Shown: in pieces, positions 28,729 to 54,554 of the stretch
How positions within the stretch are numbered: position 1 is the first letter of the stretch
Layout of the letters: each line of letters opens with the position of its first letter
Source: Gammaproteobacteria bacterium
Lineage (GTDB): Bacteria; Pseudomonadota; Gammaproteobacteria; JAADGQ01
DNA length: 64,000 nt
Reading direction: 5' to 3'
Assembly (NCBI GenBank): GCA_013152295.1
Contig: JAADGQ010000131.1
Span: 6,219-70,218, forward strand
Notes under the pieces: generated by a model
Databases searched by the model: none
Told to the model about the DNA's origin: nothing
The model's input: only the letters and a program-made list of their open reading frames with translations
Translations under genes and position numbers: made by a program

Positions 28729-28842
28729 GCATCTACTCAAACAAGGCCAGCCATTGCTGGTGCAGTCCCTCTGCAATTTTTATAGATTACCCCTGCAGGG
28801 CATAGCATCGGTAAATGGCGCATATAATCGACGGAAAAAAAT

Positions 28843-36808: not shown

Positions 36809-38839
36809 TCACTTGCTTTCTGAATACGGGCACCTGGCTCTGCTGTAGTGAACATTGCGAATTTGGTTGACGATGGTTAGCAGTTTGTCCTCGTCCAGCG
36901 GTTTCGATAAAACTTCTACTGCACCAATCTCCAATCCTTCACTGCGGCAATCCGCGCGCGAGACGATGACCACGGGGACGTTGCTGAGCGCCAGATCGCC
37001 GTTGAATTTATCCATCAACGCCCATCCGACCTCCACATTGGGCAGGTTCGGATCAAGCAGTATCAGCATCGGCCTCACTGCACACGCACGAATAAAGCCA
37101 TCCTCTGAACTCGTAGCGGTGTAGACCAAGTAGCCCGACTGCCGCAATAGCCCTTCCATTCTGTCGACGAAACCTGCATCGGCATCGATGAGCAACGTTG
37201 ATGGGATATCGCTGGGCTCCGCCATCTGCGGTGCAGTTGATGGCCTATGGGCGTCATTTTCACGTTGCGAGGCTGGATTATCTTTGATCGGTAACGGGAT
37301 ATTGATGGTGAAGCGCGAACCTTTGTCTGGCTCGCTATCAACTTCGATATCACCACCCATCAGTCGGCACAGTCGTTGACTAATGGTCAGGCCGAGCCCG
37401 GTGCCACCATAATCGCGGGTGGTCGTCATATCCGCTTGACGAAACTCCTCAAAAATATGGCGTTGCTGCGCTTCGCTCATGCCAATACCGGTATCGCTAA
37501 CTACAACAACCACCCTATCGCTGTCGTGTTCGGCATCGATTTTGATCAATCCGTGGTGAGTGAACTTTGAGGCATTGCTGAGCAGGTTAAGCAGTATCTG
37601 GTAGAGCTTTTTAGCATCAATACGCAGGGTTTCTGTGACATTTTTGGTGACACTGATTTTGAGCTGATTGTCATTTTTGACCACAAGGGGACGAATGGTA
37701 TCTTCAGTTTGCCGAATAATGGACTCCAGGTCTGTATATTCGAGCAGTAGCTCCGCACGACCGGATTCGATTTTGGCCAGATCAAGAATACTGCTGATCA
37801 GTGACAGTAGATGGTGAGAGGCGTTGAGCACACGATTCAAGTCACTGACCACCGTTTCGGGACCGGCGAGCTCTTCGAGGCTCATCTCCGTATAGCCGAT
37901 GATAGCATTCAACGGTGTGCGCAGCTCGTGGCTCATATTGGCCAAAAATTCCGACTTCAGACGATTGGATTTGAGCGCCTCATCGCGCGCCTGCACAATC
38001 TCGGCTGTGACCACCGCAATCTGCGATTCGAGCATGTTTTTGTGGCGCCGCAAACGCATATTGCGCTCATCGAGGGTGTCCATCATGTTGTTGAACACCT
38101 CCCCCATGCAGGCAATTTCAACCGGCCCGGTCACTTCAGCGCGAACACTAGACTCTTCAGTTTTTGCTCGCAGCATGATGGTAGAGAGGTTTTGTAACGG
38201 GGTCGTGATGCGCCTGATAACGACCATCAACAGCAGCAGCAATATTGCAGCGAAGGCCATTGAGACGGCAATATTCTGGGCAAAAATAGCATACTGGACC
38301 GCGTTGAGTTGCGCCTTGCTCATGGTGACGTGCACGTAGCCCAGCAGCTCCGTTGCGGCAGGCGCTTCGTCAAACAGCGCCTCTGCTTCATTATCCTCGT
38401 TGCGGAAAGAGTAGACGGGTGCCATAAACTGCAGTACGGCGTCACTCTCATTAACCAACACCGCCTCTTTCCCAGGCTCGGTAACCGCGACGGGCAGTGC
38501 GGAAAGCGCCTGTTCAGGCTCTCCTCGGTCAATAAGTACTTTGCCACTATTATCGATGATCGCGACGTAATCGATGTCGGCAAAACCAAGCGTTGCTAGC
38601 AGCGCATCGCGAGCATTGTCTCCCGAACCAACCAGCAGCGATAGGACGCTCTGCTCGGCGAGGTTTCCGGTAATCTGCATACCCTGCTCGACCATACGCT
38701 CGCGGGCGCTACTGCTGGCCATCCACGCCGTCGTCAATGATGCTGAGAGCGCCAGAAAGATAATGCCCAAGGTAAAAACCAGGATCAGCTCCCGACGGAA
38801 GCTTGTTCTGCCCGATTTTAGGTTACTTAACATAGCCAT
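36809..38839 (-). CDS. hybrid sensor histidine kinase/response regulator with periplasmic sensor domain
   Basis: Two TM helices flanking a ~150-aa periplasmic segment, HAMP, HisKA (NMSHELRTPLN), HATPase_c (DTGIGM, GGTGLGL), C-terminal receiver with DD pair and LILLDPNLP phospho-acceptor. Confidence 0.85.
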   Translation of the reverse strand: MAMLSNLKSGRTSFRRELILVFTLGIIFLALSASLTTAWMASSSARERMVEQGMQITGNLAEQSVLSLLVGSGDNARDALLATLGFADIDYVAIIDNSGKVLIDRGEPEQALSALPVAVTEPGKEAVLVNESDAVLQFMAPVYSFRNEDNEAEALFDEAPAATELLGYVHVTMSKAQLNAVQYAIFAQNIAVSMAFAAILLLLLMVVIRRITTPLQNLSTIMLRAKTEESSVRAEVTGPVEIACMGEVFNNMMDTLDERNMRLRRHKNMLESQIAVVTAEIVQARDEALKSNRLKSEFLANMSHELRTPLNAIIGYTEMSLEELAGPETVVSDLNRVLNASHHLLSLISSILDLAKIESGRAELLLEYTDLESIIRQTEDTIRPLVVKNDNQLKISVTKNVTETLRIDAKKLYQILLNLLSNASKFTHHGLIKIDAEHDSDRVVVVVSDTGIGMSEAQQRHIFEEFRQADMTTTRDYGGTGLGLTISQRLCRLMGGDIEVDSEPDKGSRFTINIPLPIKDNPASQRENDAHRPSTAPQMAEPSDIPSTLLIDADAGFVDRMEGLLRQSGYLVYTATSSEDGFIRACAVRPMLILLDPNLPNVEVGWALMDKFNGDLALSNVPVVIVSRADCRSEGLEIGAVEVLSKPLDEDKLLTIVNQIRNVHYSRARCPYSESK

Positions 38840-38869
38840 GCTAGGTGAGATGGCCTGTGCGATCGCCTG

Positions 38870-39832
38870 TCAGCGAGCCGGAAATATCCATTTAAAATCG
38901 TCCATATGGTCAGAAATATCGAGACTGAGGTGTGCGGCAGTGCGCCTATTTAGAGACATATTGAGCTCTTTTACCGGCTCAATAACCAAAGGTCGTCGCC
39001 CTTTGATCTTGTTTTGGCTGAGCGCCATTTCGGCCAAGCTGACACCTAGTTTGAAGTAATCTGGCGACGCGGAAAACAGCACCCCTTTTTTCGCATGACT
39101 TGGCACACTGGAAAAAAGGATCAATTTTTTCTGCCAGGCTGCCTTCAACAACATCGAGATAATGGACTTGCCGTTGATGGCGTCGCGCATGATCCATATC
39201 GCGTCTGTATCGGATTGTATACGGTCAAGAATATCGCCATAGACTACAGCCGCTTCGCGCAAGCTGCTCACCGGGTACGCACGCAATTTAAGCCCAAATT
39301 TAGCGCTGGCTTGCTCACTTAGACGGTGTAACCACGAAAAACGGTTTGGGTTGTAGAGCACAACCACTCGCTTCACTTTCGGTGCGATCTTTTTCAGCTG
39401 GGCGAATAGACGCTCTACATCGGCCGTCAGGCTGATGCCAGACACACCCTCGCCATCAGTAATCAAATGGGCACCACTGATATAGGGTATATCGCTTTTC
39501 AAACGTTTGGTGGCATTAACGCCACGCTGCCCCAAAGCGATAATAGAGTCGGCCGGGTTCTCTTTCAGCCACTTGGCGAGGTCCTCCAGCTCGTACTTGC
39601 GGGGCAACTTGTATTGCCCGCTAACCATCACCCGTTGCTCTATGCCCAAGATAATGGAGGAGAAAACCTTTTGGTAAGGACCTCGGGCCTCAGGGTAGAT
39701 GACGACGACACTGGATGTAGCTGCGTATATCGGCAGAGAGGGGAAGGAGAGAAGCAGGGCAAAAAGCAATGGGATGAGCCGCCCCCAATGCATTTGGCTG
39801 CCACCGTGTCGTCGTTCAATCGAGCGATCCAT
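38870..39832 (-). CDS. COG2984-type periplasmic substrate-binding protein (ABC-type SBP without transporter genes)
   Basis: Signal peptide (likely start MHWGRLIPLLFALLL at 39793); PBP fold. Immediately upstream of and co-oriented with the hybrid kinase. Confidence 0.7.
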   Translation of the reverse strand: MDRSIERRHGGSQMHWGRLIPLLFALLLSFPSLPIYAATSSVVVIYPEARGPYQKVFSSIILGIEQRVMVSGQYKLPRKYELEDLAKWLKENPADSIIALGQRGVNATKRLKSDIPYISGAHLITDGEGVSGISLTADVERLFAQLKKIAPKVKRVVVLYNPNRFSWLHRLSEQASAKFGLKLRAYPVSSLREAAVVYGDILDRIQSDTDAIWIMRDAINGKSIISMLLKAAWQKKLILFSSVPSHAKKGVLFSASPDYFKLGVSLAEMALSQNKIKGRRPLVIEPVKELNMSLNRRTAAHLSLDISDHMDDFKWIFPAR

Positions 39833-40245: not shown

Positions 40246-40614
40246 ATGGCAACAGAGATATTGCTTATCGAGGATCACCCGGATAATCGGGATATGCTGG
40301 CACGCCGTTTAACGCGGATTGGCTACACTGTTCACACCGCTGTCAATGGCGAAGAGGGTGTTCAAGCTGTATATGATCGACCACCTGAGTTGATCCTAAT
40401 GGACGTCAGCATGCCAATCATGGATGGTATCGAAGCAACGCGCCACATCAAATCAGACCCTGACTACCAACATATTCCTATCATTGGTATCAGCGGCCAT
40501 ACTTTGAGTGAAGAGAGGGAGAGGATGTTTGCTGCCGGCGCAAATGATTACACGCACAAGCCGATCGATTTTAACAAGCTGTCAATCTGTATTAAGCAGT
40601 GGCTTAGCCACTGA
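40246..40614 (+). CDS. single-domain CheY-like response regulator
   Basis: ILLIEDHPDNRDML, phospho-acceptor in LILMDVSMP, conserved T/S and K positions; no output domain. Confidence 0.85.
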   Translation: MATEILLIEDHPDNRDMLARRLTRIGYTVHTAVNGEEGVQAVYDRPPELILMDVSMPIMDGIEATRHIKSDPDYQHIPIIGISGHTLSEERERMFAAGANDYTHKPIDFNKLSICIKQWLSH

Positions 40615-40666: not shown

Positions 40667-40696
40667 GCGCCCTGATTCGTTAACGAATCAGGGCGC
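40667..40696 (-). terminator. strong intrinsic terminator (13-bp perfect stem GCGCCCTGATTCG-ttaa-CGAATCAGGGCGC, T-tract on the minus strand)
   Basis: Convergent intergenic region between the cheY-like gene and the roadblock gene. Confidence 0.6.
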
Positions 40697-40731
40697 ATGA
40701 ACAACGGTTACTGTATTTTGTCAGCGCTTAA

Positions 40732-41103
40732 TCAGTGCAGTAGTTCTTCAGTTACATCAATGGCGGCGCGTTGAATCTCATTCGAGACCAACCCCAGTTC
40801 GGCGTTGGCTTTGATAATGGTGGCAACGACAGCATCGTCGCCCGCGTGGGTGATCATCATGCAACCAGCCTCCCCGCTTACAACAATCTGCTTCATGGTA
40901 CCACCGCATATCAGTTCGATCATGGCCTGATCGCCTAGCGATACGATAGCGGCGCTCACCGCTCCCAAGCGGTCTTCATCCATATCGGTCGGCAGTTGAG
41001 AAGCCATGACCAAGCCGTCGATCGACATAATTGCCGATGCTTCAATATCCGGTGACTCTTTGTTCAGATCAACAAGAATAGATTGCAGAGCTGTGTGATT
41101 CAT
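40732..41103 (-). CDS. Roadblock/LC7 (MglB-like) domain protein
   Basis: 123 aa with the alpha-beta-alpha roadblock pattern (AIMSIDGLVMAS...GAVSAAIVSLG...VVSGEAGCMMITHAG). Confidence 0.75.
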   Translation of the reverse strand: MNHTALQSILVDLNKESPDIEASAIMSIDGLVMASQLPTDMDEDRLGAVSAAIVSLGDQAMIELICGGTMKQIVVSGEAGCMMITHAGDDAVVATIIKANAELGLVSNEIQRAAIDVTEELLH

Positions 41104-41176
41104 CGAAAACCCCCGTGGTTTTTTTAATTCTCCGAAAGTTAACCTGGCAACCTACATCATCGAATAAAAAGCGATG

Positions 41177-41752
41177 TTAGGCCGCCTCAATTTTGCGGGC
41201 GATGTCAGCATACACCGTCTTGAGCATATTCCTCATCAGTGGTGGCGTCCACCCCGTCGCCTGTAGCAGCCCTTTTTTACGCCCCTCATCAACCAGCGTC
41301 GTCGTCAACGCAACGGTTGCATCGACAACATGCTGAAAAGCAAGGAAAAGCCTGACCCCTTCGTCTGCTCCTAGTTCACTCACCATCGCCTGTAGAAAAA
41401 ACTCACGAGAACGGCTGGCCATGGTCAGCATGTAACGATTGGGCACTTCTCGACGAATGTGCGCCAAACCGATCAGGTACTGTTTTTTCCAGAATTCGTC
41501 ATCGTCATGCCCCTCAACAAGGCTTAACACCCACTTGCGCAACGTATCCTCAACCGCTGGCCGCTCCCCTTCGCGGAAAATTTCACGGGGGCCCTCGTTG
41601 TCGTAAATCGTATCGTAGAAGTGCTTAACAAAGCCCTCCAAATTACTTGTAAAGAAGTCCGTATGCTTTTTGAGAAGGGCAAAGTCACCTTCCGAAACGG
41701 AAATGACTGCATGGACTTCCCTCAGATAGAGTCCAAAATTTTGTTCACTCAT
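41177..41752 (-). CDS. protoglobin-domain protein (single-domain sensor globin)
   Basis: Globin-coupled-sensor-type globin fold with putative proximal His in LIGLAHIRREVPNRYM. Start taken as MSEQNFG (41752); the ORF extends to 41881. Confidence 0.65.
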   Translation of the reverse strand: MSEQNFGLYLREVHAVISVSEGDFALLKKHTDFFTSNLEGFVKHFYDTIYDNEGPREIFREGERPAVEDTLRKWVLSLVEGHDDDEFWKKQYLIGLAHIRREVPNRYMLTMASRSREFFLQAMVSELGADEGVRLFLAFQHVVDATVALTTTLVDEGRKKGLLQATGWTPPLMRNMLKTVYADIARKIEAA

Positions 41753-41984
41753 TTGCGACAATCTCCCGCGTGCGCTTGCCTGGGGCCATCTAAAAAGATG
41801 GCTCAGAGCGTGTGTCAAATATCCATGATGGCGACCATTCCGTTCAGCGTGTACAGCTGCGAGCTGTCCCACGGCGGCCAATAACGATGGGGCTTAACAA
41901 GAGCAGCTAACGCTCCACAGCACGGTGGAACATAACTACATGCATAGTGTTGTTATCGTCCGCTGGATCGTTAACTTTAGCGAC

Positions 41985-42887
41985 TCAGCGGGCGGGCAGA
42001 CCACTGGCCAGGTCAGGATAATCAGGTTGTACGCCCAAACCATGCACCATAAGCCGGTTATCGAGGCGCTTTGATTCGGCAAGGTAGGAGAGCATGGCGG
42101 GACTCAGCTGTTGCTGTGCTTGCAATAGAGTGATCGCAGGTGGGCGAGGTAGTCCCAGCAGATCGGCAACCCGATTGAAGTAGTCGGTCATCGTCGTGGG
42201 GTTGCCGTCACTGGCGTTATAGATGGGTGCTGGCACCTCTTTATGAGCTGCGGCAAAACAGACACGGGCAAGATCGTCGGCATGGATGCGATTGCTAAAT
42301 GGTGCCTCTGCTTCGCGCAGTACCGGCACCTCTTGGCGGATGCGTGCTATCGGCAAGCGCTGCGGACCATAGATACCTGCAACACGCAGAACAACCGAAG
42401 AGATAGCGCGCTGTTGGCTCCAGCTGCGCAGGGTGATCTCGCCATCGAGTCGCCGCCAAGCGCGTTCGCTCTGCGGGTTGGTCGGCGCTGTTTCGTCAAT
42501 CCAGGCACCGTGGCAATTGCCATAAACACCGCTAGTACTGATCAACACAATGCGCTGCGGTTGATGATCGTCGTGGATGGCACCAAGAAACGCGGCTATG
42601 CGCGAATCCGTGGCTCCCTGCGCAGGTGGTGGTGCAAAGTAGTAGATCAATGCATTGTGCGTTGGCAGCTGAATCAACGACCGCGCCACATCAAGGTCGC
42701 ACTGCAATAACTCAACGCCTTGCGCTGCTAACCGGGTGGCCGCCACACCGCTGCGCGCAACCCCTATTACCTGCTGCGCACCGCCAAGCCGTTCAAGCCG
42801 CGCAACACGGCAACCGATATCGCCACATCCAACGATGAGCACTCTTGGCACTATTTTGAGAAGCCGTACGAGGACTCTTGTAGCCAC
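41985..42887 (-). CDS. NAD(P)-binding epimerase/dehydratase-family (extended SDR) protein
   Basis: Rossmann VLIVGCGDIGCRVA N-terminus. True start probably the GTG at ~42851, abutting the GGDEF-EAL stop. Confidence 0.65.
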   Translation of the reverse strand: MATRVLVRLLKIVPRVLIVGCGDIGCRVARLERLGGAQQVIGVARSGVAATRLAAQGVELLQCDLDVARSLIQLPTHNALIYYFAPPPAQGATDSRIAAFLGAIHDDHQPQRIVLISTSGVYGNCHGAWIDETAPTNPQSERAWRRLDGEITLRSWSQQRAISSVVLRVAGIYGPQRLPIARIRQEVPVLREAEAPFSNRIHADDLARVCFAAAHKEVPAPIYNASDGNPTTMTDYFNRVADLLGLPRPPAITLLQAQQQLSPAMLSYLAESKRLDNRLMVHGLGVQPDYPDLASGLPAR

Positions 42888-45331
42888 TGCTTAAAGTGGT
42901 CGGCGGGTATTGGCGGGCTGAAAAAGTGACCCTGCCCATAGTCACAACCCAGTTTTATCAATAGCTCGCAAATAGCCGCGTTTTCAACACCTTCGGCGAT
43001 GACTTTAATACCCATGTTATGGGCCAGCTCGATCGTTGAGCGGACGATCGTGGCATCAGCTTCATCTTCGTTGACACGCAACACAAACGACTTATCGATT
43101 TTAAGCTCGTCCACTGGCAGCTGTTTCAGGTAAGCAAGTGAGGAGTAACCCGTACCAAAGTCATCGATCGAAAACTGTATGCCCATGGCATTCAGTTCAT
43201 TGATCACCTCCAGCGCACGTACTGGCTCCTCCATGATGGCGGTTTCAGTGATCTCCATACGCAGCAACTCAGGAATGGCATCGGCCCTTTTCAATATCCC
43301 TTTGATCCGTGACGGGAACTGCTCCTCCAGTAAATTTTGTGGGGAGAGATTCACCGCCACATTCAGTTCGATACCTGCCTGCTGACACATTCTGCACTGC
43401 CTGACGGCAGCCTCTACAACCCACAGGGTGAGCGGACGAATCAGCCCGGTCTGCTCCGCGAGGGGAATAAACTCATCCGGTGGTAGCAAACCGTGCTTGG
43501 GGTGCTGCCAGCGCACCAACGCCTCAACACCAATCACTTTGTGCTGAATCAGATCGATTTTAGGCTGGTAATACAAAATCAGTTGCTCTGCATGAATTGC
43601 TGTGCGCAGCTCGCCCGCCAGAGCGAAATTGCGCGCACTGTGTCTATCCTGATCCGGGTTGTAGACGACGACATCGCGGTGGCCACGCTTGGCGGCATAC
43701 ATCGCCACATCTGCGTGGCGGGTCAGCGTAATGCTGTCGTTGCCGTGGTCGGGGTAGAGTGCAATGCCGACGCTGGCGGACAAGTGCAATGACTGGCCAT
43801 CCATTTTGTCGATAACGAAGGGGGCCTCTATAGCGGTGAGCAGTTCATGTGCGACTTGCGAGGCATGTTCGCCGCTACTGCCCGGCAGATAGACGGCGTA
43901 CTTGTCGCCACCGAGACGGGCGATGACACCGGGTGGGCTATCCACGCGCTGTTTTAAACGGCGGGCAACTTGCAGCAATACGTTGTCACCGCACTGATGA
44001 CCCAGCGTATTGTTGATCTCTTTGAAGCGATCAAGGTCCAACAACAGCAGGGCAAACTGCAGCTGTTGCTCAGCCCCGTCGGCGATGGCTTGTTGAAGTG
44101 CGTGATCGATGTAGGCGTGGTTGGGCAGCCCGGTTTGAGCATCGTGAGTGGATTGATACTCCAGTGCAGCAGTCTGCGCTCTTCGTGTGGTGATGTTGTG
44201 AAGAATGCCGACAAAGTAGTGGCGCCTGTCCAGCGTCATTTTGCTTAACGTCACCTCCACCGGGAACAATGAGCCATCTTTGCGCAGGCCCAGCAGTTCG
44301 CGGCCAATACCCATCATTCTTGGCACTTTTGATGAGATGCAGCGGCTCATATAAGCACCATGCAGATCACTAAGATGGGTGGGCATCAACATGGTAACGT
44401 TCTGGCCAACCAATGCTTGGGAAGGGTAACCGAACATCTCTTCAGTGGCCGGATTGACCGTCACCATCTCGCCCTCTTCATTGGTCGTAATCACAGCATC
44501 GGCGAGGTTGTCAACAATCGCCCTGATACGTGCTTCGGAGGCGATAAGATCGCGTTGCATAGAGTTAAAAACTGTGGCCACCTGACCCAGCTCATCCTTT
44601 CTCTCCTCAGCCAACAGCGCGGTGCGATCACCCTGACCAACCCTTGTAATAGCATCGCGCAGGATACCGATCGGGCGCAACACATTGACGCGTAGTGCCA
44701 GCCACATGGCGATACCGAGAAACAGTGACAGCAACACAAGAATCATCCACATACGTGATTGCATATAGGCAATATGCTTGGAGACCTCTTTTATAGAGGA
44801 TGTCAGCATCAACACACCACGCAATGGTGCGGAGTCATAGCCGTGACATGCCAAACACTCTGCATCCGCTCTGATCGGCATCAGCACGGTAATCTGCTCG
44901 CTAGTGCCTGTTTCGATAATTGTATCGCCGCTGAGAGCGGCGTTGAAGGCCGTCATTGGCACTGAAGGTGGCGTACTTGACAGTACTGCTGTTCTCTGAA
45001 AACGTGGGGTGTGCAGATATGAGTTGACGGCGTTGACCGTCTCAAGGTCGGTGAACGCGGGCTGGCCGTTACGGCGCAGAATCTCGATACGCACAATGCC
45101 TTCGGCATCTTTCATGCGATCCAACCACTCTCGCGCCAACGTCCCCTGACCGTTGAGCATCAATGTTTTCAGGCTGGCTAGCAGGGTTTTAGCGTGAGAT
45201 TCAGCGCGCCTGACCTCCTCTTTATAAACGGTGTCAGCGAGCTGTTTCTGAATCCACAAGCCGCTGAAGATCAGCGGTACTGCGAGCACCAGGGAGATAA
45301 TTAAAGCGAGGCGGGTGCTCAGGCTGTTCAT
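42851..45331 (-). CDS. membrane-anchored signalling protein with periplasmic domain, PAS, degenerate GGDEF and intact EAL domains
   Basis: Two TM helices flanking a ~170-aa periplasmic region. PAS (IVDNLADAVITTNEEG). GGDEF A-site reads RLGGDKY (Glu to Lys, Phe to Tyr; no RxxD I-site). EAL domain has EALVRW, DDFGTGYSSL and KIDKSFV motifs. Confidence 0.9.
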   Translation of the reverse strand: MNSLSTRLALIISLVLAVPLIFSGLWIQKQLADTVYKEEVRRAESHAKTLLASLKTLMLNGQGTLAREWLDRMKDAEGIVRIEILRRNGQPAFTDLETVNAVNSYLHTPRFQRTAVLSSTPPSVPMTAFNAALSGDTIIETGTSEQITVLMPIRADAECLACHGYDSAPLRGVLMLTSSIKEVSKHIAYMQSRMWMILVLLSLFLGIAMWLALRVNVLRPIGILRDAITRVGQGDRTALLAEERKDELGQVATVFNSMQRDLIASEARIRAIVDNLADAVITTNEEGEMVTVNPATEEMFGYPSQALVGQNVTMLMPTHLSDLHGAYMSRCISSKVPRMMGIGRELLGLRKDGSLFPVEVTLSKMTLDRRHYFVGILHNITTRRAQTAALEYQSTHDAQTGLPNHAYIDHALQQAIADGAEQQLQFALLLLDLDRFKEINNTLGHQCGDNVLLQVARRLKQRVDSPPGVIARLGGDKYAVYLPGSSGEHASQVAHELLTAIEAPFVIDKMDGQSLHLSASVGIALYPDHGNDSITLTRHADVAMYAAKRGHRDVVVYNPDQDRHSARNFALAGELRTAIHAEQLILYYQPKIDLIQHKVIGVEALVRWQHPKHGLLPPDEFIPLAEQTGLIRPLTLWVVEAAVRQCRMCQQAGIELNVAVNLSPQNLLEEQFPSRIKGILKRADAIPELLRMEITETAIMEEPVRALEVINELNAMGIQFSIDDFGTGYSSLAYLKQLPVDELKIDKSFVLRVNEDEADATIVRSTIELAHNMGIKVIAEGVENAAICELLIKLGCDYGQGHFFSPPIPADHFKQWLQESSYGFSK

Positions 45332-45411: not shown

Positions 45412-46599
45412 TCACTGGATGTTGCTGATGTGAGCGACACCTCCGAAGCTACCGATCCAGACGCTGCCGTCTGCAGCATCGCTCATTGAGAAGACGTTAT
45501 CGGCATAGAGACCATCGGCACGAGTCAGCACAGAGAAGCCGCTACCCTGTTTATTAAAATAGGCCAAGCCGTTACTGGTGCCGATCCAGATCCGACCATT
45601 GGGCGCACGGTGCAACATAAAAATGTGGTTCGCAGGGAGGCCATCTACGGTGGTGTAGTTGCGCCAGCTTTTACCATCGAAACGTGCCAAACCGCCACCC
45701 CAAGTGCCGCACCAGACAACGCCTTGGCTATCTACTGCAAGCGAGATGATGTAGTTGGGATTATAGGCGACTTTGACATCAGACAGACCCTGCTCAGCTT
45801 TCTGTCGGGCGTGATGTGAGGAGGCTTGCGCCGGATCGTTGGTAAATTGAATGGTCTCTTTTACCACGTCGTAGGGTGCTCCCAACCCGTCATCATGTTT
45901 CCAGTTAACCCAGCTACCATCCCTATACCGCGCCAGCCCATCTTCGGTAGCGAACCAGATATCACCGTTCAAACCCTCTTCAAGGCCGTAAACCCATGGG
46001 TTCGGCAGCCCGCCATCGGTGTTTTCAACGGTAAATGATTGCCAGCTATCTGGGTCTTCGAGCACGCCGCCTTTAATACGATTAACCCCCGACCAGGTTG
46101 CAATCCAGATATCGCCGTTGGAAACTTTCTTGACATCATAGACAAACTGATCGGCAAGTCCTTCGGGAATATTATAGTTCTTCCATTTATCGGCACTGAT
46201 GTCGTAAACCGACAGGCCGCCACCGTAGGTGCCAAGGTAGATCCGCTCATCAATTCTGCTAACGTGAAAAATACCGTTAGAGAGAATACCGCTGACTTTG
46301 TTGTCGAAAACCTTGTAGCTGTCATCTCGGGTATCGTAGCGAATGACGCCTCCGGAAGTACCGATCCAGACGTAGTGACCCTCGGCATGTATCGATTTAA
46401 CGTTGCTGTTGCCCACCTCAAATTGAGCAAAGTGGTTGTTGCTCGGCATCTGCTGTTTGTGTTGTGCCGTCGAAGCGTTGGCTGTACCGCTGCTGGTCGT
46501 TGTATTGGTTTCGCTCGGTGAACAGGCGATGAGGGCAGTAGCCATTGCTAGCAGCCCCGTCGCGATGATGACGCGTTTATTGATCCAACCCTGACTCAT
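45412..46599 (-). CDS. secreted two-component-regulator-propeller (Reg_prop) beta-propeller lipoprotein
   Basis: Signal/lipobox (LLAMATALIACS). At least six WxGT/WIGT repeats (VWIGTSGG, IWIATWSG, IWFATEDG, VWCGTWGG, IWIGTSNG, VWIGSFGG). Confidence 0.75.
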   Translation of the reverse strand: MSQGWINKRVIIATGLLAMATALIACSPSETNTTTSSGTANASTAQHKQQMPSNNHFAQFEVGNSNVKSIHAEGHYVWIGTSGGVIRYDTRDDSYKVFDNKVSGILSNGIFHVSRIDERIYLGTYGGGLSVYDISADKWKNYNIPEGLADQFVYDVKKVSNGDIWIATWSGVNRIKGGVLEDPDSWQSFTVENTDGGLPNPWVYGLEEGLNGDIWFATEDGLARYRDGSWVNWKHDDGLGAPYDVVKETIQFTNDPAQASSHHARQKAEQGLSDVKVAYNPNYIISLAVDSQGVVWCGTWGGGLARFDGKSWRNYTTVDGLPANHIFMLHRAPNGRIWIGTSNGLAYFNKQGSGFSVLTRADGLYADNVFSMSDAADGSVWIGSFGGVAHISNIQ

Positions 46600-47789
46600 T
46601 GCTTGTTATCCGCTTGTTGAGGTGTATTGCCAATGCGCACAACGCCGCTACGTGTTCCAGCCCAAATCTCACCGTCTGCGGTTGTAGCTACTGAGTAGAC
46701 GCTCTCACCAAGCAGCCCGTTGCTTCGGTCAAGGGTAATCCAAGATGTTCCATCGAAGCGCGACAATCCTTTGTTAGTGCCAAACCAAAGCGCACCCTGA
46801 CGATCTTCCGCGATGCTGAAGACAATATCGCCAGCAAGGCCATCCTCAGAGGAGAAACTTTGCCACTGTTTACCGTCGAAACGGCTGACGCCACCACCCC
46901 AGGTACCCGCCCAGATTGAGCCATCATCAGCCTTGTGGTGTATCGAAAAGACATAAGAGGGGTTGTAAGTAGGGCGCCCTTCAGTGAGCACGCTCAGGTT
47001 GTGTCGTGAGCGAGTGCCGAGCCCGGTGTTGATGCTGAGCGGCAGACTGCCCCGGTTATCGGCACCAAGGCCATCGGCGTGGGTCCACGCTTGCCACTGC
47101 ATGCCGTCAAACATTGAGACGCCACCCTCTGTGGCAAACCAGACGCGCTCTTGTGCATCCACAGCGATACCGTAGACCCACTCGTTAACGAGTTCTTCAA
47201 CGTAGTTGGTTAATTCGCCGCTGCTGCCATCCAGGCGGCTGGCGCCTGCCCAGGTGCCAACCCACAGCGTATTATCAGATTGCTGTGCGAAAGCATAAAC
47301 CCAGTAGTCGGCCAGTCCGTGCATGGGAAAGTAAGTTTTCCACTTGTCATCGCGATAGCGCGACATGCCGCCGCCGTTGGTGCCAAACCAAGTTGCGCCG
47401 CTATTATCGGTGAGAATACTGAACACGTATTCGTTGGCCAGGCCGTGTTCTCGGGTGAAGGTGTTGAGGACGTTTTGATCTTTTAAGTCGACCTCGATGA
47501 CGCCGACGGATGAACCAACCCACAACCGCTTGCGCTTTTCATCCACGTTGAGTGCGCGCACATAGACCTCTTTGCCCACATCAAAAGCGTCGAGAACGCG
47601 AAAATTGTGCGCTTTGATCTGTTTGTTAGCGCTGCTCTCCGCCGGATTTTTAACTTGAGCAACGCTTGTTGGTTGCGTGGTGGTTGCTTGCTGCTGCGCC
47701 GTGGCAGGAGGTTCGCTATTCTGTTCCGAGCAGGATGCCAACATCAAAGAGATACACAGCAACGCAACAGAAAGAACAGCTGCACGCAT
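46596..47789 (-). CDS. secreted Reg_prop beta-propeller protein (paralogue of the gene above)
   Basis: Signal peptide with lipobox (LMLASCSE); repeats LWVGSSVG, TWFGTNGG, LWVGTWAG, VWFATEGG, IWAGTWGG, LWFGTNKG, IWAGTRSG. ATGA overlap with the downstream propeller gene. Confidence 0.75.
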   Translation of the reverse strand: MRAAVLSVALLCISLMLASCSEQNSEPPATAQQQATTTQPTSVAQVKNPAESSANKQIKAHNFRVLDAFDVGKEVYVRALNVDEKRKRLWVGSSVGVIEVDLKDQNVLNTFTREHGLANEYVFSILTDNSGATWFGTNGGGMSRYRDDKWKTYFPMHGLADYWVYAFAQQSDNTLWVGTWAGASRLDGSSGELTNYVEELVNEWVYGIAVDAQERVWFATEGGVSMFDGMQWQAWTHADGLGADNRGSLPLSINTGLGTRSRHNLSVLTEGRPTYNPSYVFSIHHKADDGSIWAGTWGGGVSRFDGKQWQSFSSEDGLAGDIVFSIAEDRQGALWFGTNKGLSRFDGTSWITLDRSNGLLGESVYSVATTADGEIWAGTRSGVVRIGNTPQQADNKQ

Positions 47790-48103
47790 CAGCGCAACGT
47801 CCTCAGATAAGCAATCACGTCAAGCATCTCCGTCTCATTCATACGCCCCATGAACGCAGGCATCATCCCCTTTCCCGCTTTCAGCACAGAGAGCAGCCCA
47901 ATATCGGACTGCAGCAACCCTTCACCACGCGTGAAATCGGGCACTCCGGGAATGGCACCACGGCCACCGCTGCCATGACAGCCTGTGCAGTAGCGATTGT
48001 ATTTTTTGGCTCCCTCACCAGGGTTGCCAGCATGTGCGACACCGCTCAGCAGAAAAGCGAGCAAGACGACCATCAAATTTATTTTGGCTGTGTGGTTTTT
48101 CAT
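47789..48103 (-). CDS. periplasmic class I c-type cytochrome (c553/c6-like)
   Basis: 104 aa from MKNHTAKINLMVVLL (signal peptide) with a single CTGCH haem site and distal Met (GKGMMPAF). Its stop overlaps the propeller start by 1 nt. The listed ORF extends upstream to 48253. Confidence 0.75.
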   Translation of the reverse strand: MKNHTAKINLMVVLLAFLLSGVAHAGNPGEGAKKYNRYCTGCHGSGGRGAIPGVPDFTRGEGLLQSDIGLLSVLKAGKGMMPAFMGRMNETEMLDVIAYLRTLR

Positions 48104-48170
48104 CTCCCATCCCTCCTTAATTTTGCGCTGCATCTTATTGCTTTTATCATTTTTGTGGGCCAGAGCAAAG

Positions 48171-48707
48171 CTACTGCGCACTGATCGGCAATGTTCCATC
48201 ATAAGCAGCTTCGAGCATCTCAATCGTTGCTGGGTCGTGCCACTGTCGCGCACCGATAATCTGGCGCAGCAAAACCCCGTCTCGGGAGATCAAAAACGTG
48301 CTTGGGTATGCGCTGATAGCCAACTGCTGCTGAGCAATCGCCATTGTCTTATCGATAAAGCTCATCAGCCTGACCCCTCTATCGATCAGGTATTCACGCA
48401 CCGGCAGCTCATCATCGTCTACCGACATGAGCAGCACCGCAAAACGCTCTCTGTCCAACGCACCCATCAGTTTTTCAAGGCTGGGTAACTCACTGCGACA
48501 TGGCGCGCACCAAGTCGCCCAGACGTTGAGCATGACGACTTTGCCACGATACTGCTCAAGCGGGGTCTGGCTTCCATCTAGTCCCGTCAACATGATCGCG
48601 GGAAAACGCTTCCCCTCAATGAGTCCCTTTTCAGGGGGCGGCGGCTCGCTGCATGCTGAGGCAGCCAATAACGTGATTAACAACAGCAGAAGCCTGCAGC
48701 GTCTCAT
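48171..48707 (-). CDS. TlpA/ResA-family periplasmic thiol:disulfide oxidoreductase
   Basis: Signal peptide and WATWCAPCRSE thioredoxin-fold active site. Confidence 0.8.
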   Translation of the reverse strand: MRRCRLLLLLITLLAASACSEPPPPEKGLIEGKRFPAIMLTGLDGSQTPLEQYRGKVVMLNVWATWCAPCRSELPSLEKLMGALDRERFAVLLMSVDDDELPVREYLIDRGVRLMSFIDKTMAIAQQQLAISAYPSTFLISRDGVLLRQIIGARQWHDPATIEMLEAAYDGTLPISAQ

Positions 48708-48748
48708 CTATTAGCGACCAATGTTAGCGGCCAGTTTTTCCCGTTGAT

Positions 48749-50035
48749 TTACGGCACTATCTGATCGATAACGATGGTCACGTCGTCGCTACCAACCGGC
48801 ACATTTGCCGCGATGCCTTGCAGATCACCACTGGCCGATGATGCATCGCCGCTACGCGAGACGCGAGCGACAAGAATAACGTTTTGGTGGTCTGACAACT
48901 TCAGTGACGGCATCAACGCAGTCGTGTCATCCAGCGTAAAAGTTACGGGCAGCTCTTTGAGCTGTTTGCGCACAATAGCGACCGGCATGCGTGCATTTTC
49001 ATCGGTGCGAGCAAAGATGAACACAGTGTCATCGGGCTCTGCTTTGCCCAGCAAATCGGGATTCAGCTCAACACGGCCCGAGATCTGAGTCGTGCGATCT
49101 GCTTCGCCTAGTGTGTCTTGAGTGACATCGCCGGACTGAGAGGCATCACCAAACGTTGGCGGCGCAGCATTACCCGTAGCCAGGTGACGTGCCTGGGCAA
49201 TGTTACCTTCGATAATCCCCGCGTCTTCCGAGCCCGGCGTCAGTAGCGTCAGCAACTTCTCCCAGTAAGGAATGGACGCGAGAAAGTTACCCCGGTCAAA
49301 TTCGTAGGTGGCGGATAACCACAACCCCTTGCCGTTGTTGGGGTCGAGCTCCAGAGCACGACGTATCAACGTGATCGGCCTGCCTTCGAGGCTTTCGTTG
49401 TTGCTGCTCATAGCCAGTGCATCGGCATAATCGAGGAGCAAATTGGGATCATTGGGACCGACCAGTTTAACGACGTTGCCATACGCGTTGGCTGCCTCCG
49501 CAAAGCGGCGCAGGGCAAAATAGGAGCGGCCGAGCATGTTCCAACCATCCACGTCATCGGGATTCTCGTGCATGCGCTGCTCCAGAGCCGCCACCATCGC
49601 CTCGATCTGACCCGGCAAATTATGGTCCGCTGTGTTCGGCGCAGCTATCTCGGCAGGCTGCTCCGCAAACGCCTGCGGATTGCCCAACGTCTGATAAAGC
49701 GTAATGGCAAGTGCAGGAACCGCCACCGCGACCAGCACAGCGGTGATCAAAGAGGGCTTTCTCTCGGTCTTTGTTTCGACAGCGGCGCTACTGTCACCGA
49801 TATCCTCAAGCATCCGTTTTTGCAGGTCCGCACGCGCCTGATTGAGACGAATATCACTGAGCGTGCCCTGCTCCAGGTCTCTATCGAGGTCGGCAAACTG
49901 CTCTTTGTAGATGGATACGTTAACCGCAGTGCGATCGACTTCAGCCTTTGCAGAGCCACGCCGCAGCATGGGGGGGAGCAGAAAAAACAGGGCAACTGCA
50001 ATAAATCCAGCAGCCACCATCCAAAAAACCATCAT
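48749..50035 (-). CDS. ccmI: c-type cytochrome biogenesis protein CcmI (CycH)
   Basis: N-terminal TM hairpin (FWMVAAGFIAVALFFLLPPML) and C-terminal TPR region. Last gene of the ccm cluster. Confidence 0.8.
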   Translation of the reverse strand: MMVFWMVAAGFIAVALFFLLPPMLRRGSAKAEVDRTAVNVSIYKEQFADLDRDLEQGTLSDIRLNQARADLQKRMLEDIGDSSAAVETKTERKPSLITAVLVAVAVPALAITLYQTLGNPQAFAEQPAEIAAPNTADHNLPGQIEAMVAALEQRMHENPDDVDGWNMLGRSYFALRRFAEAANAYGNVVKLVGPNDPNLLLDYADALAMSSNNESLEGRPITLIRRALELDPNNGKGLWLSATYEFDRGNFLASIPYWEKLLTLLTPGSEDAGIIEGNIAQARHLATGNAAPPTFGDASQSGDVTQDTLGEADRTTQISGRVELNPDLLGKAEPDDTVFIFARTDENARMPVAIVRKQLKELPVTFTLDDTTALMPSLKLSDHQNVILVARVSRSGDASSASGDLQGIAANVPVGSDDVTIVIDQIVP

Positions 50036-50508
50036 GCCTTATCTCTCCCGATATCCTCATTTAGCAGCTGATCAACGCGTTCACGCTCCTCCTTGGTGAG
50101 CACGGTTTCGGTGCCGCGTGCCCGGCGCCGTTTGAGCACCACAAACAGAACCGTCGCGCCGATCAACAACATGCCCAGCGGCCCCAGCCACAACAGCATC
50201 GTGGTGCTATTGAAGGGAGGACGGTAGCGAACAAAATCACCGTAACGTTCGACCAAATAGTCGACAATCTGCTGGTCACTCCATCCAGATTTCATTTTGT
50301 CGCGCACTTCATTGCGCATATCAATAGCAAGCTCAGCGTGGGAAGCTGCCACAGACTGATTCTGACAAACGAGACAGCGCAGCTCTTTGCTGAGTGCCAT
50401 CACCCGTTTCTCCAGCACCGGATCTTCGGCCATGGGGGTCGCTTCATTTGCCACGACCGCGCCAGACAGCAACCCTGCAATCAATATGAGAGGTATCAGT
50501 ATTTTCAT
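50032..50508 (-). CDS. ccmH: cytochrome c-type biogenesis protein CcmH
   Basis: LRCLVCQNQSV (LRCxxC) motif. Confidence 0.85.
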   Translation of the reverse strand: MKILIPLILIAGLLSGAVVANEATPMAEDPVLEKRVMALSKELRCLVCQNQSVAASHAELAIDMRNEVRDKMKSGWSDQQIVDYLVERYGDFVRYRPPFNSTTMLLWLGPLGMLLIGATVLFVVLKRRRARGTETVLTKEERERVDQLLNEDIGRDKA

Positions 50509-50527
50509 TCCATTAACTCTATTGGTG

Positions 50528-51061
50528 TTAGCTCTCTAGCTTCAGCTTTTTAATCAGGGGGATGATGGTTTCGTCCAGTGCTTTTCGCGTTACCGGACCA
50601 ATCTGCTTGTAGCGGATTGTGCCATTCTGGTCGATGAGGTAGGTCTCTGGAACGCCGTATACGCCGTAATCGAAACCAACTTTGCCTTCCACATCCTGAG
50701 CACTCAACACGTAGGGGTTGCCAAGCTGACGTAGCCAGCGGATGGCATCCGTCCGTTTATCTTTGTAGTTGAGACCATAGATCGGAACAATGTTCTGTTT
50801 GGCAAGCGCGATCAGCAGCGGGTGCTCGGCACGGCACGAGACGCACCACGATGCCCACACATTGAGCAGCCACACTTTGCCAGCCATATCGCTACGCGAG
50901 AATGTTTTTTCTGGCTGGTGCAACTGGCTGAGTTGAAACGCAGGCGCAGCTTTGTCAATCAACGGTGAAGGAACGTTGCGTGGATTGAGATCCAGCCCAA
51001 TCAGCAAAAACACGGCGATACCGATAAAAACGGCGAGCGGGGCAATAAAACGAATCATCAA
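50528..51061 (-). CDS. ccmG: thiol:disulfide interchange protein DsbE/CcmG
   Basis: WASWCVSCRAEHP active site and GVYGVPETYLID motif. Confidence 0.9.
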   Translation of the reverse strand: MMIRFIAPLAVFIGIAVFLLIGLDLNPRNVPSPLIDKAAPAFQLSQLHQPEKTFSRSDMAGKVWLLNVWASWCVSCRAEHPLLIALAKQNIVPIYGLNYKDKRTDAIRWLRQLGNPYVLSAQDVEGKVGFDYGVYGVPETYLIDQNGTIRYKQIGPVTRKALDETIIPLIKKLKLES

Positions 51062-53097
51062 CTACTAGCCTCTGTGGCGATGTTATTGTCAACAACCGCT
51101 CTACCATCGGCAATGGATGCCATACGCGCCTGTTGTTTGCGTGCGGCGATGCGGTAACGGCGGTCACTCATGGCCAGAAAACCGCCAATAGCGAGAAACC
51201 CACAGCCGCCCCACAACCAACCGATGAATGGTTTGTAGTAGACACGAACGCTCCAAGCGCCGCCGCTAAGTGGATCACCGAGCGATATGTAGAGATCGCG
51301 GGTAAAGCCATAATCGATAGCGGCCTCGGTCATAGGCATTGACTGTACGTTGTAAATACGTTTTTCCGGCTCCAGCACCATTAGATCTTTGCCGTCTTTG
51401 ATGACTTGAATCATGCCGCGGTTGGCGCGGTAATTTGGACCAGTGGTCGACATAACGCCATCAAAGCGAAAGGTGTAACCAGACATCGTCAAGGTGTCGC
51501 CCACCTCCATACGCACATCCTGCTCAACCTCATAGCCTTTAACCAAAGTGATGCCTGCGACGATGACTGCGAGTCCGAAATGAGCTACCTGCATACCCAG
51601 GTAGCCGTTGGGCAAGCCCAGTAACGCAGTGATAGCGCTTTTGCCGCGCTTTATCTCCTGAGCAATCCTGCTCCCGACCCCCTGCAAAATCGACAGCATC
51701 AGCCAAGCAGCCAAAAACAATCCGACACTCACCATGAGTGATATTTCACCCATCAAGAATGGCAGCGCAACAGCTAATACGATGCTGATAATGAACGACG
51801 TGCGCAGCTGTTTGATCAGCTCGCCTGCATTACCCTGCTTCCAGCGTACATAGGGGCCAATCGACATCAACAGCAGCAACGGAATCATCGGCAGCAGAAA
51901 CATGCTGTTGAAGTAGGGCTCACCGACAGATATTTTCGCAGGCTCGATAATGTTCAGTGCTACGAATGCATCGACGACCAGCGGGAACAGTGTGCCGAGC
52001 AGCACCACACCGAGTGCGACCACCAACAACACGTTATTGATGAGCAGCATGGTTTCTCGTGAGAAGGCGTTGAAACCACCGCCGAGCCCAACGCGCGGCG
52101 CACGCCATGCATAGAGCAACAGCGCGCCACCGATGACCACGCCAAGAAAGATCAGAATGAACAGGCCACGCTCGGGATCGGTGGCAAAGGCATGTACCGA
52201 TGTTAAAACACCGGAACGAACCAGAAAGGTGCCCAGCAAGCTCAGTGAAAAGGCGAGGATGGCGAGTAGTACCGTCCAACTGCGGAAGCCGCCCCGTTTT
52301 TCGGTGACAGCAAGCGAGTGGATCAGTGCAGTGCCAGCCAACCACGGCATGAATGATGCGTTTTCAACGGGGTCCCAAAACCACCAGCCGCCCCAACCAA
52401 GTTCGTAATAGGCCCACCAGCTCCCCAGACCAATGCCAATGGTGAGGAACACCCAGGCCACAGTTGTCCACGGTCGTGACCAGCGCGCCCAGGCGGCATC
52501 AAGTTTGCCGCCGATCAAGGCCGCGATGGCAAAGGCAAATGCAACGGAAAAACCGACGTAGCCCATATAGAGCATCGGTGGATGGATGACCAGCCCGAAA
52601 TCTTGCAGCAGCGGATTCAGGTCGCGACCATCGACAGCAGCCGGAAACAGCCGCTCAAACGGGTTGGAGGTAAACAGGATAAACAGCAAAAACCCAACAC
52701 AGATCAAACCCATAACACCCAGCACCCGGGCAGCCATTGCCGGGGAGAGGTGGCGACTGAAGAGCGCAACTGCTGTAGCCCAGCCTGAGAGCATCAAAAT
52801 CCACAACAGCAGAGAGCCCTCATGACCACCCCACACGGCGGCAACGCGGTACTGGATTGGCAGTGCCGAGTTGGAGTGTAACGCCACGTAGAGCACCGAG
52901 AAGTCATTCTGCACAAAGGCGTAGACGAGACAGCCGAAGGCGGTGGCGACAAACAGAAACAGCGCATACGCCGCCGGGCGAGCTACAGCAACCCACGCGG
53001 GAATGCGCAGAACCGTGCCAGCAATAGGCAGTATGCCGAGCAACAGTGCAACGCTGAGCGCGGTGATGAGGGCAAAATGCCCAATCTCTGGAATCAT
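51058..53097 (-). CDS. ccmF: cytochrome c haem lyase subunit CcmF
   Basis: 679 aa polytopic membrane protein with the WWxxD tryptophan-rich motif (WGGWWFWDPVEN). Confidence 0.9.
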   Translation of the reverse strand: MIPEIGHFALITALSVALLLGILPIAGTVLRIPAWVAVARPAAYALFLFVATAFGCLVYAFVQNDFSVLYVALHSNSALPIQYRVAAVWGGHEGSLLLWILMLSGWATAVALFSRHLSPAMAARVLGVMGLICVGFLLFILFTSNPFERLFPAAVDGRDLNPLLQDFGLVIHPPMLYMGYVGFSVAFAFAIAALIGGKLDAAWARWSRPWTTVAWVFLTIGIGLGSWWAYYELGWGGWWFWDPVENASFMPWLAGTALIHSLAVTEKRGGFRSWTVLLAILAFSLSLLGTFLVRSGVLTSVHAFATDPERGLFILIFLGVVIGGALLLYAWRAPRVGLGGGFNAFSRETMLLINNVLLVVALGVVLLGTLFPLVVDAFVALNIIEPAKISVGEPYFNSMFLLPMIPLLLLMSIGPYVRWKQGNAGELIKQLRTSFIISIVLAVALPFLMGEISLMVSVGLFLAAWLMLSILQGVGSRIAQEIKRGKSAITALLGLPNGYLGMQVAHFGLAVIVAGITLVKGYEVEQDVRMEVGDTLTMSGYTFRFDGVMSTTGPNYRANRGMIQVIKDGKDLMVLEPEKRIYNVQSMPMTEAAIDYGFTRDLYISLGDPLSGGAWSVRVYYKPFIGWLWGGCGFLAIGGFLAMSDRRYRIAARKQQARMASIADGRAVVDNNIATEASS

Positions 53098-53142
53098 GGT
53101 CAGCGTGTCCTTTTATATTGTCGCGCTTAACTTGTCGCTTAT

Positions 53143-53761: not shown

Positions 53762-53763
53762 GG

Positions 53764-54522: not shown

Positions 54523-54554
54523 AATTGGCGATACAACCCGTTATCGTAATCTTT

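Follow-up and report, generated by a model that had tools for sequence, protein, structure and literature searches.

Sensor globins signal via fused chemoreceptor, kinase, cyclase or STAS domains, and a globin without such a domain raises the question of where its signal would go. The question is posed here by a 64,000-nt stretch of gammaproteobacterial DNA (GenBank assembly GCA_013152295.1, contig JAADGQ010000131.1, positions 6,219 to 70,218; the whole stretch is called the window below), in which a gene for a single-domain globin is followed, on the minus strand between positions 41752 and 40667, by a gene for a Roadblock/LC7 protein. An initial annotation, made from the sequence alone, had described the two genes as a unit with its own terminator and without a GTPase, and had suggested that the unit provides an input to the cyclic di-GMP (c-di-GMP) and two-component signalling genes around it. 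The description of the unit was borne out in all its details, its interpretation in part. By following both gene families into other genomes and metagenomes, we found that the pairing is a real, non-random and recurrent sensor-adaptor module. As for its function, we lean towards the reading that the window pair serves as a satellite module through which an O2/redox signal reaches a small GTPase whose gene lies elsewhere in the genome.

The unit is made up of the following features.

41752 to 41177, minus strand: sensor single-domain globin gene (Pfam Protoglobin, PF11563), ATG start, 191 amino acids (aa)
41176 to 41104, minus strand: intergenic spacer of exactly 73 nt
41103 to 40732, minus strand: Roadblock/LC7 gene (MglB superfamily, PF03259), 123 aa
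40696 to 40667, minus strand: intrinsic terminator ending the two-gene unit, with a 13-bp perfect stem, a 4-nt loop and a TTTTT tail
41753 to 41984, minus strand: upstream intergenic region of the globin gene, read from the sequence and by consensus and terminator scans

The globin, the roadblock protein and the unit they form

The first protein was matched to PF11563 with an E-value of 2.2e-16 and 60.7 bits (cut-off 25). This was the only family match in its 191 aa and no fused output domain was present, in agreement with the initial annotation. The globin core takes up approximately residues 1-150; the 40 or so residues after it form a helical tail, in which the AlphaFold2 (AF2) model shows the last part of a long helix (129-166) and a second helix (170-190). 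Its best sequence match in the PDB was 5ohe, the globin of AfGcHK, the globin-coupled histidine kinase of Anaeromyxobacter (E = 2.4e-7), with further matches to the haem-containing anti-anti-sigma factor 7o0i and to the globins of BpeGReg, the Geobacter globin-coupled sensor (GCS) and HemAT. In the AfGcHK alignment, the window residues KHFYDTI fall on EEFYDRI and IGLAHIRREVP on IGRVHVRIGLP, by which Tyr46 and His98 are placed in the FYD and GxxHxR motifs, at the distal tyrosine (B10) and proximal histidine (F8) positions. The roles given to these two positions are those established for AfGcHK and HemAT. An alignment of 16 sequences shows His98 without variation, in one of 50 sequences it is at least 90% conserved, and Phe45, Tyr46 and His98 are all invariant across ten aligned roadblock-linked globins.

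The AF2 model of the globin, built with 50 relatives, reached a mean predicted local distance difference test (pLDDT) score of 96.2. When it was searched with Foldseek, AfGcHK 5ohe was again at the top (root-mean-square deviation, rmsd, 1.7 Å over 148 columns; TM-target 0.85), with HemAT 1or4, GsGCS 2w31 and a cyanobacterial sensor globin among the other matches, while archaeal protoglobins superposed less well (rmsd 2.6-3.3 Å). The window globin is thus closer to the globins of bacterial globin-coupled sensors than to archaeal protoglobins, and "protoglobin" is only its Pfam label. Since no transmitter domain is fused to it, it is a sensor single-domain globin (SSDgb) of the S family and not a globin-coupled sensor in the strict sense. 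Judged by its residues and by its relatives, it probably binds haem. A non-haem globin that would pass a signal other than a gas to the roadblock, like the N-terminal domain of RsbR or photoglobin, is a highly improbable explanation of the unit: such globins are known in or near the superfamily (PMC4476040; PMC8717448) and the B10 tyrosine is missing from two close relatives, P0019 and P0022, but the window protein itself has both His98 and Tyr46, the proximal histidine is conserved as given above, and every one of the top structural matches is a sensor globin with bound haem.

The second protein was matched to PF03259 (Robl_LC7) with an E-value of 2.7e-13 and 49.9 bits (cut-off 23), and its PDB matches were 7f8m (E = 1.5e-17), 9jue (4.7e-12), the mycobacterial Rv3364c and CvnB5 of Streptomyces. 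It is not an MglB orthologue, as it scored 16.1 bits against the NCBIfam MglB equivalog NF052242, for which the cut-off is 200. Relatives were found at 46-56% identity, sharing the motifs IEASAI.S.DGL and MDEDR.GA.SAA..SLG.

The layout of the two genes is operon-like. Their open reading frames (ORFs) are in different frames, 73 nt apart as first annotated; an alternative globin ORF starting with TTG extends to 41881, and homologues align from the ATG at 41752. This ATG is preceded by a GGAGA Shine-Dalgarno sequence at a distance of 9 nt, and the roadblock ATG by a G-rich, Shine-Dalgarno-like run within the spacer. A scan of the minus strand of the spacer (41176-41104) found no terminator-like site. 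A regulatory hairpin in this spacer was considered as well and was rejected, its folding being no better than that of shuffled sequences (z = +0.73). By contrast with the spacer, the site following the second gene is a strong terminator, and the perfect 13-bp stem initially described was confirmed: it is located 36 nt past the roadblock stop codon, contains nine G-C pairs, and has a folding energy of -25.9 kcal/mol (z = -5.4), which none of 200 shuffles equalled. It serves the minus strand only, the plus strand being without a T-run. In the region upstream of the globin gene (41753-41984), a TTGACA hexamer resembling a -35 element lies at 41818 to 41813, about 60 nt before the globin ATG, with a weak -10 element, and the consensus scan of this region gave no full sigma-70 match. 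A promoter belonging to the globin-roadblock unit is possible.

Recurrence of the pairing and the GTPase cluster around the roadblock family

To learn how general the pairing is, one genome per species was scanned for relatives of the window roadblock, and at least 571 loci were obtained. All genome locus counts given below refer to the best 80 of these (L008-L087), among which the window's own locus is not included. The 80 loci belong to Gamma- and Betaproteobacteria, with hosts including Thiothrix, Thiolinea, Leucothrix, Methylomonas, Methylomarinum, Methylophaga and Thiodiazotropha, as well as Halothiobacillaceae, Zoogloea, Sphaerotilus, Accumulibacter and Lysobacterales. A same-strand PF11563 globin gene lies directly beside the roadblock gene in 10 of the 80, with the order globin then roadblock in eight and the reverse in two; three additional pair loci (L001, L002 and L003) come from metagenomes or metagenome-assembled genomes (MAGs). 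For comparison, a random neighbour is expected to be a sensor globin in approximately 0.3% of cases or less. Under a generous null of five globins in 3500 genes and two neighbours each, the binomial probability of 10 or more in 80 is approximately 5e-14, a figure that ignores phylogenetic non-independence.

The same picture was obtained from the globin side. Three members of the largest globin clade, from Methylocaldum marinum, a Methylobacter genome and a JGI contig, were picked without knowledge of their context, and all three have a 120-aa roadblock gene 9-17 nt downstream; the flanks of these loci are wholly different, and no GTPase gene was found within 7 kb of them. A metagenome scan with the alignment of this clade yielded 59 loci, of which 55 were readable on both sides, and a roadblock gene was adjacent in 49 of the 55 (30 globin then roadblock, 19 roadblock then globin), mostly with gaps of 9-57 nt. 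These cassettes comprise 26 stand-alone pairs, nine partial clusters, one roadblock-globin pair in the reverse order and 13 complete clusters, the last consisting of 10 with the order GTPase, 215-aa protein, roadblock, globin, PAS, PhnD-like and three in which globin and roadblock are exchanged. The globin was alone in 10 of the 59 loci (six readable on both sides, four not). The neighbour of another globin, P0071, which resembles that of L015, was checked and was not a roadblock gene. The conserved co-occurrence on which the initial annotation had staked its case is therefore strongly positive in genomes, metagenomes and blind samples. Its remark that the pairing is not a textbook system also stands, as the only published precedent found is the fused protein HGbRL (PMC4476040): in the literature searched, which was not exhaustive, no account of split sensor-globin/roadblock cassettes was found, and a paper on photoglobin gene neighbourhoods does not mention roadblock or GTPase genes.

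The genes flanking the pairs are unrelated between loci and include biotin genes, succinate dehydrogenase, transposases and plasmid genes. In L001 (1-12363), a roadblock-globin pair is carried by a plasmid-like contig together with a MobA/MobL relaxase, TraD, KfrA, ParE and PemK, and in L071 of Methylomonas fluvii (6518-7603), an IS110 transposase directly follows the pair. Because of these two settings, the globin-roadblock cassette may be mobile. Stand-alone pairs of an Aer-type PAS gene followed by a roadblock gene were also observed (L045, 3627-4467; L072, 5439-6348), in MAGs that have a full GTPase cluster as well. With such PAS-roadblock pairs existing alongside the globin-roadblock pairs, "small sensor + roadblock" appears to be a general duplicable unit.

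The full cluster was defined after ORFs had been called in all loci and classified by hidden Markov models (HMMs) built for this purpose. Its dominant order is of five genes, encoding a small GTPase, a 215-aa protein, the roadblock, a single-PAS protein and a PhnD-like binding protein, and in the 80 loci the GTPase was counted in 63, the 215-aa protein in 67, the adjoining small PAS protein in 49 and the PhnD-like protein in 50; one example is found in Thiothrix fructosivorans (L014, 4778-7715). The GTPase is of 180 aa, matches PF03029/Ras/Roc, and has PDB matches to Rab, Ras and MglA. The 215-aa protein gave no match in Pfam, NCBIfam or the PDB sequences. The PhnD-like protein is of about 248 aa (PF12974), and the PAS protein, of about 158 aa, shares 43-44% identity over 127 residues with positions 7-134 of Aer from E. 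coli MG1655, the FAD-binding PAS domain. Upstream, two further proteins without a Pfam match are found repeatedly, one of about 415 aa in 56 loci and one of about 237 aa in 48. A bactofilin gene (PF04519) is present in 14 of the 80 loci, in Thiotrichales, approximately 3 kb upstream of the cluster (for example L012, 1608-1970, minus strand). This neighbour recalls the SofG-BacP GTPase/bactofilin polarity system of Myxococcus and hints at a tie to polarity or the cytoskeleton in some clusters, the association being inconsistent. The cluster as a whole is conserved and apparently undescribed, no published account of it having been found in the searched literature, which was not exhaustive.

In two or three of the genome loci (L077 and L086, with L066 partial), as in the complete metagenome clusters, the globin gene is inserted into the GTPase cluster, and in many lineages it is an integral gene of this cluster. 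This bears on a point that the initial annotation had left implicit, namely that the roadblock might work without a GTPase. With the family next to a GTPase gene in 63 of 80 loci, with globins often inside GTPase clusters, and with a full cluster elsewhere in the genomes SDAY01, NCGK01 and JALSLS01 that carry a stand-alone pair, the pair most probably feeds a GTPase rather than replacing one.

Descent of the window pair and its proposed input to a GTPase

The roadblock-linked globins fall into at least four clades with mutual identities of only 13-30%. Clade A is large and contains Methylococcales, Thiodiazotropha and others; clade B, with the order roadblock then globin, contains Halothiobacillaceae and the plasmid-like contig; the remaining two lineages are a single Leptothrix globin and the window globin. 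As at least four separate globin clades are joined to the same roadblock family, the comparison of sequences indicates that a globin was recruited to this family repeatedly. In the roadblock tree, roadblocks of stand-alone pairs nest within lineage-specific clades of cluster roadblocks, and the pair roadblock of L002 is nearly identical to the cluster roadblock of L049 from the same MAG. Stand-alone pair and full cluster occur together in the MAGs SDAY01, NCGK01 and JALSLS01, and a stand-alone Aer-PAS-roadblock pair is present in NCGK01 and JARJMX02. Given this nesting and the joint presence of pair and cluster in the same MAGs, the stand-alone pairs look like recent duplicates, "sensor + roadblock" satellites of the GTPase cluster.

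The window pair is a member of this set by its make-up, having adjoining genes on one strand for a PF11563 globin and for a roadblock of the IEASAI/MDEDR family. Several observations nevertheless weigh against reading it as one more satellite of a GTPase. An HMM built from the family's companion GTPases found no match in the whole 64-kb window at E ≤ 10, as the initial annotation had said of the surroundings, and the 215-aa protein, the Aer-type PAS and the PhnD-like gene were likewise absent from the 64 kb. The window roadblock is the outgroup of its family and its most divergent member, about 50% identical to all others, and the next most basal roadblocks (L004 and L082) are adjacent to a GTPase gene. 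The window globin stands apart from the two large cassette clades, and none of its nearest relatives, P0019, P0022 and P0020, has a roadblock gene beside it, the gene downstream of P0020 having been checked and found to be something else. In addition, the spacer of 73 nt compares with 9-57 nt in most cassettes. No fusion of the two proteins was found among 8000 scored candidates for a concatenated globin and roadblock profile, whose top matches were single-domain globins. AF2 modelling of an artificial globin-roadblock fusion from unpaired alignments gave a predicted template modelling score (pTM) of 0.64 and no confident interface; in that fused chain the roadblock part was poorly modelled (pLDDT 41-82), and the model is uninformative on a contact between the two.

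The isolation of the window globin was also seen in the homologue searches. An exhaustive search of 1.84 billion representatives placed its next relative at 40% identity, and a word-index search with it returned only itself. Longer globin-containing representatives were checked for fusion to a roadblock domain and none was found, the partners seen being a zinc ribbon, HisKA, hemerythrin and PsiE. The closest relative, P0019, lies in a tandem globin-globin pair (L005, 2-3079) preceded by genes for a di-iron protein of the ODP family, a ParA/CbiA-like ATPase and a 193-aa protein, a locus that may represent a different multi-sensor O2 module.

Part of this evidence would also fit a fortuitous or vestigial adjacency in this one genome, with the globin acting alone, in O2/NO binding, in detoxification or with another partner, beside an unrelated orphan roadblock. 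The closest relatives of the window globin are not beside roadblocks, the window roadblock is the outgroup, and a 73-nt spacer implies no translational coupling. By the four-gene coupling criterion (PMC4316618), the roadblock gene is indeed an "orphan", because no GTPase gene is found within 64 kb, and orphans are common in general, 328 of 749 MglB homologues (44%) being uncoupled (PMC4316618). We nevertheless consider this explanation improbable. The two genes share a strand, the spacer is without terminator or structure, and a single strong terminator follows the second gene; members of both families lie side by side in dozens of other lineages, some of them with globins of independent clades; and chance would supply a sensor-globin neighbour at the very low rate given above.

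In the satellite reading that we favour, the globin would bind haem via His98 and, with the help of Tyr46, would bind O2, with NO or CO as less likely ligands. A ligand-driven change of shape in the globin dimer would then be passed to the co-expressed roadblock by direct protein contact, and the roadblock, in turn, would change which nucleotide a Ras-like small GTPase carries or where in the cell it is located. It could do so as a GTPase-activating protein, as a platform for a guanine nucleotide exchange factor, or, in the manner of MglC, as an adaptor that connects to the cluster roadblock. The target would be the GTPase of a cluster elsewhere in the genome, of the type GTPase, 215-aa protein, roadblock, Aer-type FAD-PAS and PhnD-like protein. 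The analysis shows which domains the two proteins contain, the globin fold, that the haem-ligand residues are conserved, that the genes are laid out like an operon, that their adjacency recurs and that the roadblock family is linked to GTPases. Haem binding, O2 as the ligand, a globin-roadblock contact, a GTPase in this genome and a downstream output are inferred. The strongest argument, a circumstantial one, is that this roadblock family is habitually flanked by a stand-alone HemAT-type globin and an Aer-type FAD-PAS protein, the two classic O2/redox sensor domains. Each half of the reading also has a published precedent, one in HGbRL (PMC4476040) and one in the conservons (PMC13343842; PMC4316618), both described below.

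Extended to the whole family, the proposal is more tentative, and we would place it somewhat short of an even chance: an undescribed O2/redox G-protein pathway may exist in many members of the Gamma- and Betaproteobacteria, among them methanotrophs, sulfur oxidisers, Thiothrix and Zoogloea, leading from stand-alone forms of both classic aerotaxis sensor domains, a HemAT-type globin and an Aer-type FAD-PAS protein, through a roadblock to a Ras-like GTPase, with the window pair as an independently recruited satellite input. If this pathway is true, it would be a bacterial counterpart of the roadblock-scaffolded GTPase sensing of eukaryotes (Ragulator-Rag). A roadblock/GTPase output, if true, would add a further output class for sensor globins, and bacterial GTPases of the MglA and conservon types would gain a defined physiological input, O2/redox, of a kind largely missing so far. 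Since cassettes are found in the cultivable genera Methylomonas, Methylocaldum, Methylobacter and Thiothrix, the question can be tested experimentally. Where a cell places itself in an O2 gradient is a central matter in the ecology of microaerophilic methanotrophs and sulfur oxidisers.

Neighbouring genes and comparison with known systems

The genes nearest to the pair in the window are as follows.

40246 to 40614, plus strand: convergent CheY-like gene encoding only a REC domain, 122 aa (PF00072, E = 5.7e-26)
41985 to 42887, minus strand: NAD-dependent epimerase-family gene, upstream of the globin gene
42851 to 45331, minus strand: HAMP-PAS-GGDEF-EAL gene, upstream of the pair on the same strand
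36809 to 38839, minus strand: sCache-HAMP-HK-REC hybrid kinase gene (HisKA-HATPase)

The CheY gene and the c-di-GMP and two-component genes mentioned in the initial annotation are thus present. The series upstream of the pair, all on the same strand, runs through the epimerase gene, the HAMP-PAS-GGDEF-EAL gene, two Reg_prop propeller genes, a cytochrome c gene and a thioredoxin-like gene to the ccm operon. As the terminator scan found no site between the globin gene and the upstream epimerase gene, read-through into the pair from the GGDEF-EAL and epimerase genes may occur.

From such a layout, a GTPase-independent local wiring could be proposed, in which the pair would regulate one of its neighbours, whether the HAMP-PAS-GGDEF-EAL protein, the hybrid histidine kinase or the orphan CheY. 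The roadblock would be the adaptor through which a kinase or cyclase is reached, in the way that CvnB contacts the kinase-like CvnA, and the output would be O2-dependent control of c-di-GMP or of a phosphorelay. Conservon roadblocks do bind a kinase-like protein (PMC4316618, PMC13343842), the 64 kb are without a GTPase, and the genes from ccmA through the GGDEF-EAL and epimerase genes to the pair all read in one direction, without a terminator ahead of the globin gene. A PAS-GGDEF-EAL gene is located within 6 kb of the pair in the window and in L001, L077 and L086, and near the PAS-roadblock pair of L072, but near few plain cluster loci, and a YcgR-like PilZ gene follows the pair in L080. These GGDEF-EAL and PilZ genes near some loci hint at a c-di-GMP tie, an inconsistent one. 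We regard local wiring as unlikely, though less so than a fortuitous adjacency. The other flanking genes are unrelated between loci; a PAS-GGDEF-EAL gene was nearby in only four of the approximately 19 globin-bearing loci first examined, with 27-29% identity; GGDEF-EAL genes are abundant in these genomes; L077 and L086 belong to the same genus, so that few independent events are represented; and the roadblock family is overwhelmingly GTPase-linked. Of the proposed input to the c-di-GMP and two-component network, the neighbours are thus real, while the functional link to them is weak.

Other features were noticed in the same region. With the GTG listed as its start, the epimerase-family gene shares 37 nt with the last part of the GGDEF-EAL gene (42851-42887), which reflects either translational coupling or a real epimerase start farther downstream. 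Two proteins of about 395 aa, encoded in tandem at 45412-47789 (minus strand), are built of Reg_prop (two-component regulator propeller) repeats only, without a kinase or output domain; their genes separate the GGDEF-EAL gene from the cytochrome c/ccm operon. A complete ccm operon for cytochrome c maturation (haem delivery), with extra thioredoxin-like and cytochrome c genes, occupies 47789-55852 (minus strand), and its co-directional position upstream of a haem-globin unit is probably a coincidence. The hybrid kinase (sCache-HAMP-HisKA-HATPase-REC) is paired with a periplasmic binding protein of PF04392 (ABC_sub_bind) at 36809-39832 (minus strand), a logic shared with the PhnD-like gene of the GTPase clusters. 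Farther away, a locus of the PEP-CTERM/exosortase type is found at 16968-26648 (minus strand), with genes for a 952-aa TPR protein, exosortase EpsH with DUF3485, a sigma-54 response regulator, a GAF histidine kinase and a sugar transferase, and two UDP-glucose/GDP-mannose dehydrogenase genes at 27400-30120.

Among known systems, the closest is HGbRL of Methylacidiphilum infernorum, a globin with a Roadblock/LC7 domain fused at its C-terminal side; a separate pair of roadblock and MglA-like GTPase is encoded in the same genome (PMC4476040). HGbRL and the window unit have in common a haem globin combined with Roadblock/LC7, in the order globin then roadblock, and a ligand-induced movement has been proposed to reach the roadblock part of HGbRL. 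In contrast to the two genes here, HGbRL is one polypeptide, and its globin belongs to the flavohaemoglobin/HGbI (M) type and forms a site-swapped dimer, whereas the window globin is of the sensor (S) type. Moreover, HGbRL, the only published globin-roadblock protein, was thought to be confined to one verrucomicrobial genus and was without a known function, while the pairing described here is widespread in Gamma- and Betaproteobacteria and occurs in GTPase clusters.

In the MglA/MglB(/MglC) module of Myxococcus and Thermus, a roadblock-fold protein likewise partners a Ras-like GTPase and paralogues such as MglC act as adaptors; but that module has no haem or PAS sensor proteins, the window has no adjacent GTPase gene, and the GTPases of the present family match PF03029/Ras and are not close relatives of MglA. 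Conservons (CvnA-D, with CvnE/CvnF) come nearer in logic, as the signal is proposed to run from a sensor via a roadblock to a GTPase, with GAF or P450 proteins as stand-alone accessory sensors (PMC13343842). A roadblock, a small GTPase, a protein of unknown function and stand-alone accessory sensors (GAF or haem P450 there) are common to both systems. Conservons are, however, restricted to Actinomycetota, and their core has the kinase-like CvnA and the DUF742 protein CvnC; neither a CvnA-like kinase nor DUF742 was detected in the window or in the related clusters, where no Pfam family was matched by the partners of 215, 415 and 237 aa. In conservons the kinase is the target of the accessory sensors, whereas the sensors here flank the roadblock gene. 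The window unit is therefore neither a conservon nor an HGbRL-type fusion.

On the sensor side, the PAS protein of the related clusters, whose gene is not in the window, shows the identity to the FAD-PAS domain of Aer given above, but stands alone, without the HAMP and MCP parts. The globin-coupled sensors (HemAT, AfGcHK, DosC and BpeGReg) and the haem-RsbR stressosome sensor have the same sensor-globin fold with a proximal histidine and a distal tyrosine, and those proteins sense O2. They differ from the window globin in their output, which is a fused MCP, kinase, GGDEF or STAS domain, whereas the window globin ends in a tail of about 40 aa and has its putative output, the roadblock protein, encoded in a separate gene.

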